Assembly (NCBI GenBank): GCA_049304095.1
Contig: JBAQNU010000024.1
Location: 11,893-75,892, forward strand
Direction of reading: 5' to 3'
Source: Candidatus Moraniibacteriota bacterium
GTDB lineage: Bacteria > Patescibacteriota > Minisyncoccia > Moranbacterales > UBA2206
DNA: 64,000 bases
Shown: in pieces, positions 56,929 to 59,830 of the stretch
How positions within the stretch are numbered: the stretch's first letter is position 1
Layout: every line of letters starts with the position of its first letter
Notes under the pieces: model-generated
The model's input: the letters and a program-made list of their open reading frames with translations, nothing else
What the model was told of the DNA's origin: nothing
Database searches by the model: none
Translations under genes and position numbers: made by a program

Positions 56929-57015
56929 AATTTAAAAAATATTTTTTTAAGCTAGTTTAATTCTAATCTAATCCGCTAGCAATGGCAATGTCAAATATGC
57001 CCTAGTCAGCTCTAT

Positions 57016-57381
57016 TTGATTGACAAGCGCGCTATTTTGTTGTATCCTACAAATCTCAAGAGAGTGTTTCTCTTGGGGGATGTTCTTTTAACCGGCAATA
57101 ATCAAAGGATTATCGCCCAAAATTTATTACCCCAAATAGAGGAGATTTTAGTAGTGGACTTAGCTAAATTTAAAGAAGTTTCAAAAATGAGCAGGGATGA
57201 GTTTATGGAATATATTGCTCAGCCAGATTCTGGCTTGGAACCGAAGTGGGATGGTATGTTTGATTTCGTGATTAATGAGCTAGATGATCGATCACGACGA
57301 ATACTCAAAATCATGTTTCCCAACGCGCAGTCAGATGATGATTTTGAAGAAGCATTTGAGAGGGGTCTGTTTAAAGACTAA
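57016..57381 (+). CDS. Hypothetical acidic protein; start uncertain
   Basis: The ORF as drawn overlaps a promoter-like TTGACA-17-TATCCT at 57020..57048, so the true start may be internal. Confidence 0.3.
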   Translation: MIDKRAILLYPTNLKRVFLLGDVLLTGNNQRIIAQNLLPQIEEILVVDLAKFKEVSKMSRDEFMEYIAQPDSGLEPKWDGMFDFVINELDDRSRRILKIMFPNAQSDDDFEEAFERGLFKD

Positions 57382-57442
57382 ATAGTCGCTTCTCACTACT
57401 AAAAAATTCTTGCTCGCTATCACGGGCTGATTGATACTAAAT

Positions 57443-57600
57443 AAAAAGGGAGTTATTCGCAATGCGGATAGCCCCTTTTTCTTTTGCCAAGATAGTTTGA
57501 CCGCAAGCCCAAACTATGCTACAAATTAATTCCATAGTTATTTAAAAACTGAATAGGTCTTTTTGGACTATTCCCCAGATAAACTTATAAAAAAAGGAGA
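57443..57600 (+). promoter_or_regulatory. Repeated terminator-promoter-leader cassette (copy 2)
   Basis: Conserved hairpin with loop TATTCGCAATGCGGA, then TTGACC-17-TACAAA and a conserved leader AAATAGGTCTTTTTGGACTATTC. Near-identical to 59697..59830; partial copies lie at 57020..57054 and 58925..58990. Confidence 0.45.
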
Positions 57601-57685
57601 ATGCCTGGTGGACACGAAAGCAACCTGAAAATTCCGCAAGTAGTTAACATCACTCACATCAACAAAAAGAAAAAAAGGAGTAGGT

Positions 57686-58789
57686 ATGGAAAAGCAAAGA
57701 AAAATCAGATTGTTTGTAGTAGCGGCAATGGTTGTTGTTTGTCTGTTTTCCCTGTCTGGGAACTCTTTGGCAGACGACTATCTTGGGACTGATTGGTGGG
57801 TGAAAGTCAGCACCGAAAGCGTTCCCTGGCTAAACGGTAGCTTTACGGTTGCCGGCTATGACCGTTGGGGAAACCATTTTTCCCACACGGGGAATAAGAT
57901 TCAAATTGGGCGCGGACCGGAGTTGGGGGTGTTTTATGTGACCGGCTCGACGCGGTTGACACTCTCTGGCTATAATTTTGGGAGCAATTTCTATCCTGTT
58001 TCCATGTCTAGCACAGGAGCGCCAATTCTCAATGGTGGCAATATCGAAGTTTCAACAAATGGGGAAAATCATCTGACAATTAACATCCAAAACAGTCCAG
58101 CCCTGGGACAAGTCAACACGAAAATTGTTTTTGATGGAGTATCAAAGGCAACTGTGTCGAATGCTTTGGTCGCCAAAATCACCTCATCATTGCAAAACAA
58201 TGGCTGCTCGGAAATCATGAGCAGCTATATGGTAGACGGTGTCGTGCACAGCGTTCAACCCTCAGCCCAGGCGATCAATGAGGACTTTAATTGCTCAGAG
58301 ATTTTCGGGGCGATGGGTGGCGGAACCTTGAATGCTCCGTCGATGTTCATCCGTATGCCCCAGGGATTATGGAGTGGATATTTCCAAAAAGATTCGAGTG
58401 TTAATTCCTCGGATGACAATGTCTATTTGGCCATTGATCAACCAGTCTCAAACTATACAGTTGAAGTCTGGGATTATTGCGCCAAGCTTAACGCGGATTT
58501 TAGCATTGACATTCCTTGTGTTAACGTCGGAGGGGGGTTCTATCGTATTCGACTTGATTATGCAAATCAGGTCGACTCTCCTTTGCTCTGGAGACTGAGG
58601 GATATTTATCCCGCGGGAAATAATTACAATTCAATCCCGATCGACCTCGATCTCGAGTTGGTAATCCCGTATATCAATCTGGCAAACGGGATAAACTATG
58701 GTATCGGATTGTCTTATTCCGGGGCCGACGCCGCTGGTTATTATTGGCAGATTACCTCGGCAGTGCCAAACGCTTGCAATACCCAATGA
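57686..58789 (+). CDS. Secreted protein with a signal peptide, hypothetical
   Basis: AAGGAG Shine-Dalgarno. N-terminal h-region VVAAMVVVCLFSLSGNSLA. Confidence 0.5.
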   Translation: MEKQRKIRLFVVAAMVVVCLFSLSGNSLADDYLGTDWWVKVSTESVPWLNGSFTVAGYDRWGNHFSHTGNKIQIGRGPELGVFYVTGSTRLTLSGYNFGSNFYPVSMSSTGAPILNGGNIEVSTNGENHLTINIQNSPALGQVNTKIVFDGVSKATVSNALVAKITSSLQNNGCSEIMSSYMVDGVVHSVQPSAQAINEDFNCSEIFGAMGGGTLNAPSMFIRMPQGLWSGYFQKDSSVNSSDDNVYLAIDQPVSNYTVEVWDYCAKLNADFSIDIPCVNVGGGFYRIRLDYANQVDSPLLWRLRDIYPAGNNYNSIPIDLDLELVIPYINLANGINYGIGLSYSGADAAGYYWQITSAVPNACNTQ

Positions 58790-59084
58790 TCCAATGAGTG
58801 AAATCTATCACTCAGTACAAAAAAAGGCGGTTGAGGTCTCACTTCAGCCGCCTATTTAATTAAAAAAATTAGCCTTTGCTAATCTGCTAGTAATGGCAAT
58901 GCTAAATGGGGTTTGCTGAGAAACTTGACTAATAGACTGACCTGTGCTACAAATAAATTTCAAAGTTATTTAAAAACCAAATAGGTCTTTTGGTTGATGA
59001 AGCTTTTTCAGTTTCCATTCCTTGAGCGTGGTGCCCAAGGAAGACGGAAGATGGGTTGAAAACTTGAAATGAGGAGTAGTTACT

Positions 59085-59549
59085 ATGTCTAGAAAAATGA
59101 GTTTGGTGGAAATTTTTTGTCAGAAGCTGGTGTCATTTTTGTCAAACAACCAAAAAATCAAGGAGGATAAGCGGGAGGACAAAGTCAAATTAAGAAAAGA
59201 TGTTGAGCAGGAGGACAAAGTCAAATTGAGGAGAGATGTTCAGCAGGAACTGATTTCAGTTAATTCGTTTGAAAATTTTCTTGCTGAACGGATGACTGAG
59301 GAGCTTCAAGTGCTTCTTGATAATGAAAAAATTAAGCTCAGTGATAGAGAGCGGGAGGAGGTTGTTTCAGCAAAAAAAAGTTTGAAAAAAGCGCAAGATG
59401 AGTTAGTTGAGTTGATTAATGTCTTGGTCAAGAAGGAGGAATATGTCAAGAATGACCTTGATATGATCAATGCCAAGGGTAGTTTGATTCGCGAACTCTT
59501 CAGAAAGGCTCAATTTGTTCATTTGCAGGTAGTATCAGGCAAGAAATAA
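59085..59549 (+). CDS. Coiled-coil hypothetical protein
   Basis: GAGGAG Shine-Dalgarno. Internal repeat EDKVKLRKDVEQ/EDKVKLRRDVQQ. Confidence 0.45.
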   Translation: MSRKMSLVEIFCQKLVSFLSNNQKIKEDKREDKVKLRKDVEQEDKVKLRRDVQQELISVNSFENFLAERMTEELQVLLDNEKIKLSDREREEVVSAKKSLKKAQDELVELINVLVKKEEYVKNDLDMINAKGSLIRELFRKAQFVHLQVVSGKK

Positions 59550-59696
59550 TCGCAAAAAAAACAAAACAAGACACAAAAGACAAAACGTAAAAGACAAAAG
59601 ACAAAGAAAAAAGTACACTGAGCTAGGCACACTAAACTAGTAAATAACAGTCGACTGGAATTGAACACAATTCTAAATGACTTGTTGATAAATTAA

Positions 59697-59830
59697 AGAA
59701 AGGAGTTATTCGCAATGCGGACGACTCCTTTTTCTTTTGCCAAAATAGTTTGACCACAAGCCCAAACTATGCTACAAATTAGTTTCACAGTTTTTTAAAA
59801 ATCAAATAGGTTTTTTTGGACTATTCTGGA
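59697..59830 (+). promoter_or_regulatory. Repeated terminator-promoter-leader cassette (copy 4)
   Basis: See copy 2. The hairpin stem covaries between the copies (AAAAGGG/CCCTTTT versus AAAGGAGT/ACTCCTTT). Confidence 0.45.

Follow-up and report, generated by a model that had tools for sequence, protein, structure and literature searches.

A probable strain-variable island of promoter-gene-terminator modules in a Candidatus Moraniibacteriota chromosome

The window, i.e. the whole stretch of 64,000 nucleotides analyzed here, originates from a MAG of Candidatus Moraniibacteriota (CPR) and belongs to a chromosomal contig that carries housekeeping genes. Between the TauE and DUF5698 genes, small genes are separated by intergenic sequences, designated cassettes 1 to 3, that resemble each other. 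The features of this segment are as follows.

56968-56996, minus strand: box, forming the −35 hexamer (TTGCCA) and the spacer of the divergent TauE promoter (promoter scan)
57020-57048, plus strand: generic sigma-70-like promoter of the 75-aa gene, TTGACA-17-TATCCT, not of the cassette family
57154-57381, plus strand: 75-aa gene starting at GTG, preceded by a GAGGAG RBS
57443-57486, plus strand: hairpin terminator 1, with a stem of ~17 bp, an AAU triloop, and a T-tract (CTTTTTCTTTTG), identified from the fold and from pair counts in homologues
57475-57490, plus strand: putative recombination core CTTTTTCTTTTGCCAA, shared without differences by cassettes 1 and 3; site of the L009 crossover
57497-57525, plus strand: cassette promoter 1, TTGACC-17-(TGC)TACAAA
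57526-57573, plus strand: leader core 1 (..CAYAG....TTAAAAA...AATAGGT.TTTT..GGACTATTC), conserved among copies
57589-57608, plus strand: relic RBS and ATG belonging to the cassette (AAAAAAAGGAGAATG), a repeat within the window; the RBS is in use in L010
57686-58789, plus strand: 367-aa gene, whose product matches no known family and has a signal-peptide-like segment at its N terminus
58825-58853, plus strand: intrinsic terminator of the 367-aa gene, distinct from the cassette hairpins and unrelated to them (−21.6 kcal/mol, z = −6.4)
58879-58907, plus strand: copy of the box without a −10 hexamer, missing upstream of the identical gene in L022
58925-58953, plus strand: cassette promoter 2, TTGACT-17-(TGC)TACAAA
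58954-58991, plus strand: leader core 2, followed by divergence into an extension specific to the 154-aa family
59085-59549, plus strand: gene for a charged, coiled-coil-like protein of 154 aa (family 45-64% identical in L035 and L032)
59697-59739, plus strand: hairpin terminator 2 and T-tract, identified from the fold; a junction of L022-24 lies at its 3' end
59750-59778, plus strand: cassette promoter 3, TTGACC-17-(TGC)TACAAA
59779-59858, plus strand: leader 3 (core to 59826) and RBS AAAGGAG (59846-59852)
59861-60571, plus strand: gene for a TIM-barrel-like protein of 236 aa matching the PADLOC candidate defence protein PDC-M70B
60587-61097, plus strand: operon of an 81-aa membrane gene and an 87-aa Cys-rich gene, directly behind a cassette in L009 and L015
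62174-62239, plus strand: T-tract and, preceding the DUF5698 gene, another conserved promoter, TTGCCA-17-TAGAAT; recurrent right-hand junction

The sequence at 57443-57573 recurs at 59696-59826 as a direct repeat of 131 nt (88% identity). A third copy of 67 nt (58925-58991), 79% identical to the first, contains the promoter and the leader and no hairpin. The repeated terminator-promoter-leader cassette described in the initial annotation of this DNA is therefore real. A 32-nt promoter/leader pattern had 3 matches in 64 kb (0.00 expected), and no further cassette copies were found in the 64-kb window. These counts refer to the window; the analysis covered the window and ~7 kb of the 188-kb contig, and the copies come from one syntenic island. 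Sequences flanking the cassettes could not be aligned and the flanking proteins are unrelated, indicating that the cassette is not part of a longer mobile repeat and that the same promoter and leader precede unrelated genes. Since the local proteins are unrelated, segmental gene duplication was ruled out; an all-against-all blastp of the nine local proteins produced zero matches with E < 0.01.

The cassette promoter precedes only three of the four genes previously thought to be wired by it. Two sites had been regarded as promoter-only versions. The site at 58925 is a copy of the cassette, carrying the leader as well, and the site at 57020 is generic and non-homologous to the cassette. The gene that follows the latter site had been assigned a start at 57016 that was itself considered questionable. 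Neither this start nor 57037 is real: a 1-nt indel at 57076-57080 in L009 alters the whole upstream frame, and the L033 homologue is called from the position equivalent to GTG 57154.

All three cassette promoters of the window (3/3) consist of TTGAC(C/T)-17-TACAAA with a TGC extended −10. Thirteen distinct promoter/leader copies were compared, originating from the window and from loci L009, L010, L015, L022, L027, L032, and L035, which represent at least five related lineages. TTGAC-17-TGCTACAAAT was invariant in 13/13 distinct copies, with a spacing of exactly 17 bp and a freely varying spacer sequence. Between families, identity was 0.27-0.60 in the spacer versus 0.76-0.87 in the leader. The invariance of both hexamers and of their spacing constitutes a phylogenetic footprint, which supports the promoter proposed from the window.

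The leader core (~40-45 nt) is 83-88% identical between genomes in which the TauE, DUF5698, and 236-aa genes are 68-76% identical. This conservation above that of coding DNA makes a shared regulatory role plausible. Leader RNAs folded no better than shuffled sequences (z of −0.4 to +0.8), RNAalifold returned zero consensus pairs for 8 leaders, and two-sided covariation was not found in the leader hairpin. The leader core appears to be under selection as primary sequence rather than as RNA structure, and it probably confers shared regulation, as a putative operator or 5'-UTR motif. Co-regulation through the leader, i.e. a regulon, is plausible on the same grounds. Other readings of this region were discarded. 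A TTG-initiated uORF after AGGT, considered as a leader peptide, is not conserved and stops after 4 codons in L015. The left half of a candidate operator palindrome (CTATG...CATAG) around the −10 hexamer lies in the freely varying spacer. A second, tandem promoter in the leader had poor hexamers. In cassette 1, the functional RBS and ATG of the 367-aa gene are located 80 nt beyond the relic RBS and ATG.

Hairpins 1 and 2 folded with energies of −20.5 kcal/mol (z = −4.1) and −18.6 kcal/mol (z = −4.3), respectively (ViennaRNA), and display the organization of intrinsic terminators, with a stable G+C-containing hairpin directly 5' of a U-tract. In both folds the stem of ~17 bp is closed by an AAU triloop. 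The 16-bp helix was compared among four hairpin homologues representing three species: 95% of its cells were paired, as opposed to 50-64% in slid controls, and two pairs were changed on both sides (compensatory). The 15-nt loop initially described as conserved is the upper half of a continuous stem of ~16-17 bp, and its sequence varies in the homologues. A sequence-specific function of this loop is not supported, since the supposed loop pairs as stem. Homologous terminator hairpins are located 3' of three unrelated gene families. A search of Rfam gave nothing at the gathering score. The only family with any match was ctRNA_p42d (RF00489), which the hairpins matched at 26.5 and 20.7 bits for a threshold of 50. 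It shares with the hairpins a short stem-loop followed by a U-tract, and the resemblance is generic terminator likeness.

The box GCTAGYAATGGCAATG occurs exactly twice in the window (0.04 expected), within a 29-nt repeat (56968-56996 and 58879-58907). The second short repeat of the initial annotation was accordingly found at both places; its reading as a regulatory repeat is not supported, the box being a piece of the TauE promoter that lacks the −10 hexamer in the copy at 58879. The complete TauE promoter, TTGCCA-17-TAGAAT, occupies 56988 to 56960 of the minus strand according to the promoter scan, and the same −35/17/−10 layout is present upstream of TauE in L015 and L027. The box at 58879-58907 is a relic of an arrangement, as in L010, in which TauE and a cassette are adjacent.

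At least five unrelated gene families were found behind the cassette promoter: the 367-aa family, the 154/143/142-aa family, the 236/237-aa family, dapB, the 81/84-aa membrane proteins, and another membrane gene. Pairings between promoter and gene persist across lineages for the 367-aa gene, the 154-aa family, and dapB. In L032, a 367-aa homologue (91% identical) is located behind the equivalent cassette; in L027, the gene behind a cassette encodes a homologue of the 236-aa protein; and in three lineages the leader precedes the metabolic gene dapB. The 236-aa protein matched PDC-M70B with E = 3.6e-32, and its matches to CbiR/MNIO were weak.

Comparison of strains revealed that gene content differs from TauE to DUF5698 and that all mapped junctions lie within parts of the cassettes, namely the T-tract/−35 region, the leader, or the RBS. 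Locus L009 is 98-99% identical to the window in the flanks and lacks 57574-60571 and 61183-62185. Its single cassette is chimeric, of the cassette 1 type on the left and of the cassette 3 type on the right, with the switch inside the identical CTTTTTCTTTTGCCAA. Despite the similarity of the flanks, the 81/87-aa module of L009 is only 92% and 75% identical to that of the window. In L022-24, the T-tract of hairpin 2 (59739) is joined to 61826, just upstream of the promoter of the 90-aa gene, and four genes are missing. In the same loci, the DNA of the 154-aa gene is 100% identical and its promoter region is replaced (71% identical). Locus L032 is colinear with the window over 57043-59838, continues with dapB, and rejoins at 62182 (96% identity). 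Junctions in the region of leader 3 and its RBS are located at ~59838 in L032 and at ~59858 in L009, and the right-hand junctions of L009, L027, L032, and L035 fall at 62174-62186. The junctions of L022-24 and the third junction of L009 display T-tract microhomology only and no long homologous stretch. Since junctions inside genes would be removed by selection, the exclusively intergenic location of the junctions does not prove that the cassettes caused them. No cassette was present at the more distant TauE loci L016 and L017.

Searches elsewhere were mostly negative. An exact-pattern scan had zero matches in species-representative genomes and viral contigs, with a pattern so strict that it also misses the L015 copy, and a looser 27-base invariant pattern had zero matches in viral contigs. 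The 5 matches of the hairpin 16-mer in viral contigs were judged to be due to chance. Blast searches against phage and plasmid collections gave zero matches. Look-ups with the TauE, 87-aa, 236-aa, 90-aa, and 91-aa proteins revealed no new arrangements, and a word-indexed search with the 81-aa protein returned only itself. Among the genes called within ~10 kb, no recombinase (integrase or transposase) Pfam families were found. No regulator gene was seen among the called genes nearby.

From these comparisons, we consider that the 57.0-62.2 kb segment is probably a strain-variable island of self-contained promoter-gene-terminator modules that recombine via their shared ends. Each module would start with a sigma-70-type promoter (TTGAC-17-TGnTACAAAT) and the leader core, continue with a gene-specific leader carrying the RBS and with one or two small genes, and close with an intrinsic terminator, often the homologous hairpin of ~16 bp followed by TTTTTCTTTTG. 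The terminator is part of the upstream module and the promoter is part of the downstream module. The cassette of ~131 nt is the junction at which the hairpin terminator of one module abuts the promoter of the next. As predicted from its fold, the hairpin would insulate a module from upstream transcription, and the promoter, recognized by its phylogenetic footprint, would provide each gene with its own start. Because the module ends are near-identical, recombination between them would remove, add, or replace whole modules, leaving the genes intact, as the comparison of strains indicates.

The main alternative is that the island is purely a regulon, the leader core being kept as the site of one regulator (an operator or an unstructured 5'-UTR motif) and the rearrangements being incidental. 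This partly overlaps with the recombining modules and differs only on the reason for the similarity of the copies. The conservation of the leader core above coding DNA across species, the conservation of primary sequence without a consensus fold, the identical promoter-gene pairings across lineages, and the association of a metabolic gene, dapB, with the leader in three lineages all argue for it. Since the pairings are stable for several families, much of the similarity may stem from functional constraint acting on a long-standing regulatory element and not from recent mobility. A regulon by itself, however, leaves unexplained the recombinant cassette of L009, the promoter swap before a 100% identical gene, and the homologous hairpins after three unrelated gene families. 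In addition, the copies have no clear palindrome or direct repeat in common, and a nearby regulator gene was not seen. We regard this alternative as a serious possibility that falls short of being probable.

A discrete element moved by a specialized enzyme, or a derivative of such an element (MITE, IS200/IS605-type end, REP-like element, or integron attC), could account for a hairpin-containing repeat between small same-strand genes and for junctions that adjoin the hairpin. The copies do not have the fixed limits of such elements, their ends comprising the hairpin and promoter, the box and promoter, or the promoter alone. In contrast to MITEs, they have no terminal inverted repeats, the hairpin being the only inverted repeat, no target-site duplications, and no dispersed copies in the 64 kb. 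The absence of integrase and transposase families within ~10 kb also argues against this origin, which we consider very unlikely. The attC sites of integrons have the core sequences RYYYAAC ... GTTRRRY, their junctions fall between G and TT, and the tyrosine integrase IntI adjoins the array. Small same-strand gene arrays, hairpin-forming repeats between the genes, and content varying by strain are common to integrons and to the island. In the island, however, no integrase was found within ~10 kb, each gene has its own promoter, and the hairpin is a plain terminator without the attC layout, whose GTTATTC does not fit GTTRRRY and whose junctions lie in the T-tract rather than in the GTT core.

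A structured regulatory RNA (riboswitch, attenuator, or sRNA/ctRNA) in the leader or the hairpin is just as improbable. The leader sequence allows a weak A/U hairpin (AAAAAYN/GGUYUUU) to be drawn, and the ctRNA_p42d scores point in the same direction, although they do not come near the gathering score of 50. The shuffled-sequence z values of the leaders, the RNAalifold result, and the absence of two-sided covariation all speak against structure. Breaks at 57425/57444, 59852, and 62172 in Logan contigs from the same samples would be in line with an artefact of assembly or binning, in which the MAG contig is collapsed or chimeric. This origin of the repeat is scarcely credible, since Logan contig L007 covers 57425-64000 with all three copies at 100% identity and the same three-cassette order recurs in L032 and L033, which were assembled independently (JGI and ENA) from another lineage.

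The organization proposed for the island has a precedent in the promoter-early stem-loop (PeSL) cassettes of T4-type phages (Arbiol et al., 2010, PMC2839356; Comeau et al., 2014, PMC4122927). PeSLs consist of a stable stem-loop next to a sigma-70-like promoter and end at the SD and start codon of the next gene (PMC2839356). Their junctions are located at the boundary between the stem-loop and AT-rich sequence, between the −10 hexamer and the SD, or at the SD (PMC2839356, PMC4122927). The Moraniibacteriota cassettes likewise combine a terminator stem-loop with a sigma-70-like promoter and extend to the SD and start codon. Both types lie between small genes of unassigned function in a variable region, and in both the indel and replacement junctions of close relatives fall inside the cassette, at such positions, and chimeric cassettes occur. 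Recombination between PeSLs also releases mini-circles as circular excision products; in the island, the corresponding circle is predicted to join the left half of hairpin 2 to the right half of promoter 1. The two differ in that the host of the present cassettes is a CPR bacterial chromosome rather than a phage, outside any T4-type hyperplastic region, and in that their sequences are not related. The stem-loop is here always upstream of the −35 hexamer and has a U-tract, an additional leader core of ~40 nt is conserved across species, and an island has 1-3 copies versus ~50 per phage genome. Since the cassettes belong to a Moraniibacteriota chromosome and have no matches in phage or viral collections, they are analogues rather than members of the PeSL family, and may be viewed as their chromosomal counterpart.

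Judged on their sequences, the cassettes also fall under the operational definition of putative mobile promoters (PMPs), i.e. homologous upstream regions (>50 nt, ≥80% identical) with non-homologous downstream and upstream genes (Matus-Garcia et al., 2012, PMC3488235). Two copies share 131 nt at 88% identity, the third (67 nt at 79%) being borderline, and the neighboring coding sequences cannot be aligned. PMPs are an operational class without an attached mechanism, whereas the terminator is copied as well in the island and strain comparisons reveal recombination products. Phage morons are promoter-gene-terminator units inserted between genes. The modules resemble them in being autonomous transcription units in which accessory genes are preceded by a promoter and followed by an intrinsic terminator, and differ from them in that the island is not a prophage and its units are in tandem with homologous ends.

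To our knowledge, the transcription signals and genome change of the uncultivated CPR bacteria are almost uncharted, and experimental documentation of gene gain and loss between strains via shared regulatory cassettes is confined to T4-type phages. The locus supplies a comparatively validated promoter (TTGAC-17-TGnTACAAAT) and a terminator for Moraniibacteriota, together with a candidate cis-regulatory leader whose conservation exceeds that of the surrounding genes. A bolder view, which we offer as a speculation with a low probability of being correct as a whole, is that CPR Moraniibacteriota maintain a dedicated, integrase-free gene-capture island. Accessory genes, among them a candidate defence gene and dapB, itself probably acquired, would be rendered both expressed and exchangeable by a standard frame of promoter, leader, and terminator, the unstructured leader core of ~40 nt being the site of a regulator and the whole set a single regulon. 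The island offers a concrete case of strain-level gene turnover through shared regulatory cassettes. If general, this organization would aid the annotation of gene starts, which are wrong in the public annotation of this locus, and would explain how accessory and defence genes are swapped in tiny genomes that are poor in mobile elements.

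A repeat search in the window recovered a direct repeat of 131 nt, 88% identical between 57443-57573 and 59696-59826, in agreement with the near-identical intergenic cassettes described in the initial annotation. The same search placed 58925-58991 as the third member of a 67-nt family, 79% identical to the first copy. The features concerned are as follows.

56968-56996: 29-nt box, in the TauE promoter (minus strand)
57154-57381 (+): 75-aa gene, GTG start, first small gene of the island
57443-57573: cassette 1 (hairpin terminator 1, promoter, leader)
57686-58789: 367-aa gene
58925-58991: cassette 2 (promoter, leader)
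59085-59549: 154-aa gene
59696-59826: cassette 3 (hairpin terminator 2, promoter, leader)
59861-60571 (+): 236-aa gene
57.0-62.2 kb: island, between the divergent TauE gene (left) and the DUF5698 gene (right)

A 32-nt promoter/leader pattern had three matches in the 64-kb window against 0.00 expected, and nhmmer profile searches of the window and 7 kb beyond it detected no further cassette copies. The four intergenic regions do not align outside the repeat and the nine neighbouring proteins are unrelated to one another, indicating that the repeat is not the margin of a larger segment, duplicated or mobile, as the initial annotation had asked. The cassette is a real, orderly feature. Its parts (promoter, leader, and terminator) are ordinary; the interest lies in their arrangement and population behaviour.

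Folding assigned to hairpins 1 and 2 an almost uninterrupted stem of ~17 bp, which carries an AAU triloop and precedes UUUUUCUUUU (-20.5 and -18.6 kcal/mol; z about -4; none of the shuffles folded as well). Homologous hairpins are present in two other species (contigs L015 and L027). In the four-sequence alignment, 95% of the cells of a 16-bp helix are paired, versus 50-64% with the partner slid, and in two pairs both bases are changed (GC to AU and UA to CG), counts that, for n = 4, support the stem but do not prove it. They are enough to abandon the conserved 15-nt loop of sequence-specific function proposed previously, which is part of the stem. For leaders and hairpins alike, Rfam returned no match at the gathering score and, at E <= 1, only sub-threshold ctRNA_p42d matches on these hairpins. 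Their fold leads us to infer terminator activity.

Related loci were recovered by one metagenome pattern scan and protein-anchored look-ups, yielding 14 promoter/leader copies including those of the window. Thirteen of the copies are distinct, and at least five lineages are represented. TTGAC, TGCTACAAAT, and the 17-bp distance are invariant. The spacer belongs to several unrelated sequence families (identity of 0.27-0.60), and the 38 nt that follow the -10 have an identity of 0.76-0.87. An extended -10 sigma-70 promoter, presumably active, would be expected to leave such a footprint, which upholds the proposed promoter with its exact 17-bp spacing. The proposed conserved leader was also recovered, over ~40 nt. 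Comparison of the window with L027 gave identities of 83-88% for the leader and 89% for the second promoter region (62174-62239), versus 75% for TauE, 68% for DUF5698, and 76% for the 236-aa gene. This conservation shows apparent selection on about 40 nt of putative initial transcribed sequence (..A..T.CA.AG....TTAAAAA...AATA(G)G....). Single leaders folded no better than shuffles, RNAalifold predicted no pair for eight leaders, and a small A/U hairpin displayed one-sided changes only. Since RNA structure was not detected, the leader core appears to be a primary-sequence element; obvious candidates are an operator and a protein-binding motif in the 5'-UTR. Upon inspection by eye, neither a leader peptide nor a palindromic operator around the -10 was conserved.

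A second non-coding element, consisting of a T-tract, TTGCCA-17-TAGAAT, and about 15 nt, is located at 62174-62239 (+) in the window, 13333-13397 in L027, and 7757-7809 in contig L035. It is 89-94% identical across species, versus about 70-75% for genes there. The gene behind it is DUF5698 in the window; at other loci it is an HD_4 gene. In L027 (13400-13540), inserted REP-like palindromes (GTCATCCTGAACTTGATTCAGGATC and GTCATTCCCGCGCAGGCGGGAATCC) follow the conserved promoter, and L015 harbors a 12-bp inverted repeat, CCCTGGCGCCTT...AAGGCGCCAGGG, after the hairpin (about 8045-8110, -).

At least five unrelated gene families have the cassette promoter and core in front of them. They encode the 367-aa protein (signal-peptide-like N-terminus), 154/143/142-aa charged proteins, a 236/237-aa TIM-barrel-like protein (match to PADLOC candidate defence protein PDC-M70B, E = 3.6e-32), DapB (three lineages), an 81/84-aa membrane protein operon, and one more membrane protein. 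Beyond the core, each family extends the leader with a sequence of its own. Hairpin terminators homologous to one another are located 3' of the 75-aa gene, the 154-aa family, and a 152/146-aa family, which are three unrelated families. Thus, the unit is a module of promoter, core, gene or genes, and terminator, and the cassette is where two modules join.

No partner gene was recognised for the PDC-M70B-like 236-aa gene. This gene is about 2.5 kb from restriction-modification genes (62880-64000 onward) encoding a TdeIII/HinfI-type endonuclease and D12 and N4/N6 methyltransferases. The island resembles a hotspot for defence and accessory genes. The best matches of dapB (L027 12001-12816; proteins P0016-P0135, Parcubacteria) beyond a few CPR relatives are from Desulfobacterales and other Deltaproteobacteria (about 55% identity), which suggests that the gene may have been acquired horizontally and then borne the cassette promoter. 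The 154-aa gene contains a 36-nt tandem duplication, 81% identical (59160-59231, +), encoding a repeated EDKVKLR(K/R)DV(E/Q)Q; the difference in length from the 143- and 142-aa homologues, which are shorter, is roughly that of this duplication.

Blast comparisons revealed that variant contigs are mosaic with respect to the window. In strain contig L009, the order is 56389-57573, a cassette closer to cassette 3, 60572-61182, and 62186 onward, so that five genes are missing. The L009 cassette harbors solely cassette-1 alleles up to the hairpin 3' arm and solely cassette-3 alleles from CCAAAATAG on, the switch occurring inside the shared CTTTTTCTTTTGCCAA. This is the product expected if cassettes 1 and 3 had crossed over, or if the reverse event, an insertion, had occurred. 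The L009 81-aa and 87-aa genes are 92% and 75% identical to those of the window, versus 98-99% for the flanks, pointing to probable replacement of this module by a diverged allele. In three further assemblies (L022-24), the hairpin 2 T-tract at 59739 is joined to 61826, directly upstream of the 90-aa gene promoter, and a 154-aa gene 100% identical in DNA is preceded by another promoter-spacer allele. Contig L032 is colinear with 57043-59838, including the three cassettes, then carries dapB and rejoins the window at 62182 (96% identity). Right-hand junctions recur at 62174-62186 in L009, L027, L032, and L035, where the second conserved promoter has its T-tract and TTGCCA -35. Of the five occurrences of the motif CTTTTTCTTTTGSC in the window (0.54 expected), three are at these joints. 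Cassette 1 also retains, as a relic, an unused ribosome binding site and ATG (57589-57608); this ribosome binding site is functional in strain contig L010. In short-read contigs from the source samples, breaks occur at 57425/57444, 59852, and 62172, which fits co-existing variants and proves nothing. It is certain that cassettes mark breakpoints. They probably cause them, a weaker statement because selection hides junctions falling inside genes. Several promoter-gene pairings are old, and constraint, rather than mobility, may therefore account for much of the similarity.

At the left edge, the second short repeat of the initial annotation does occur twice (16-nt box GCTAGYAATGGCAATG; two matches in the window versus 0.04 expected), although its copies are not equivalent. 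The first (56968-56996) corresponds to the -35 and spacer of the TauE promoter on the minus strand, TTGCCA-17-TAGAAT, a layout also found upstream of TauE in L015 and L027. The second (58879-58907) has no -10. Because the cassette and TauE promoters are back to back in L010, the second copy is a relic of such an arrangement. The identical 154-aa gene of L022, like those of L023 and L024, has no box. The site at 57020-57048, considered as a promoter of the same architecture, is a generic sigma-70-like match outside the cassette family. The predicted later start of the ORF at 57016 was confirmed. A 1-nt indel at 57076-57080 relative to L009 (98-99% identical here) alters the whole N-terminal extension, indicating that the sequence upstream of about 57080 is non-coding, and a 68%-identical homologue in another lineage has its start called at GTG 57154, which follows GAGGAG. 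The gene (57016-57381, +) is over-extended into its own promoter in the public annotation, which starts it at TTG 57037 (114 aa), as it is in the longest ORF (121 aa); a Logan call uses ATG 57187 (64 aa). Two hairpins lie in the ~100-nt leader of the 75-aa gene (57054-57153, +). One is terminator-like (57054-57078, 11 pairs, T-rich tail), the other is GGCAATAATC-AAAG-GATTATCGCC, and both differences from L009 are outside the stems. This leader may be an attenuator.

The window was identified as contig JBAQFD010000024.1 of MAG GCA_049287085.1, assigned by its source to Candidatus Moraniibacteriota, as are the closest species-representative genomes. The neighbourhood is chromosomal, with glycosyltransferases, P-type ATPase, MFS, cupin, PAP2, DUF4349, and TauE on the left and DUF5698, MazG-like, two restriction-modification sets, NIF3, and Bro-N on the right; no recombinase family was found among the called genes around the island. 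Elsewhere in the window, two full-length LOOT RNA matches (RF03000; 3818-3940 (+), 101.6 bits; 30653-30779 (+), 87.8 bits) are each located just upstream of a zinc-ribbon-type gene within a ~5-kb paralogous segment (about 600-5100 and 27450-31800). A ~190-nt repeat (17934-18117 and 53271-53463 (+); L015 16630-16850 (-)) starts with the last 14 nt of 16S rRNA (ATCACCTCCTTTCT) and then resembles the spacer after the 16S gene in L015. The window contains no rRNA gene, the repeat has no Rfam match, and copy 1 has its own predicted promoter at 17873. These repeats look like orphan post-16S spacer elements.

Integron, MITE, and ctRNA identities were rejected for the cassette, each for want of a defining feature. 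The cassette qualifies operationally as a putative mobile promoter, a class defined by >50 nt, an identity of at least 80%, and flanking CDSs that are non-homologous (PMC3488235). Among described systems, it is closest to the PeSLs of T4-type phages, small elements that combine a sigma-70-like early promoter with a terminator stem-loop. PeSLs extend up to the SD and ATG and are concentrated in hyperplastic regions before ORFans (PMC2839356, PMC4122927). [quoted passage not shown] The Moraniibacteriota element works alike on every point compared. However, its host is a bacterial chromosome and its sequence is unrelated to PeSLs, so that it is not a member of this group.
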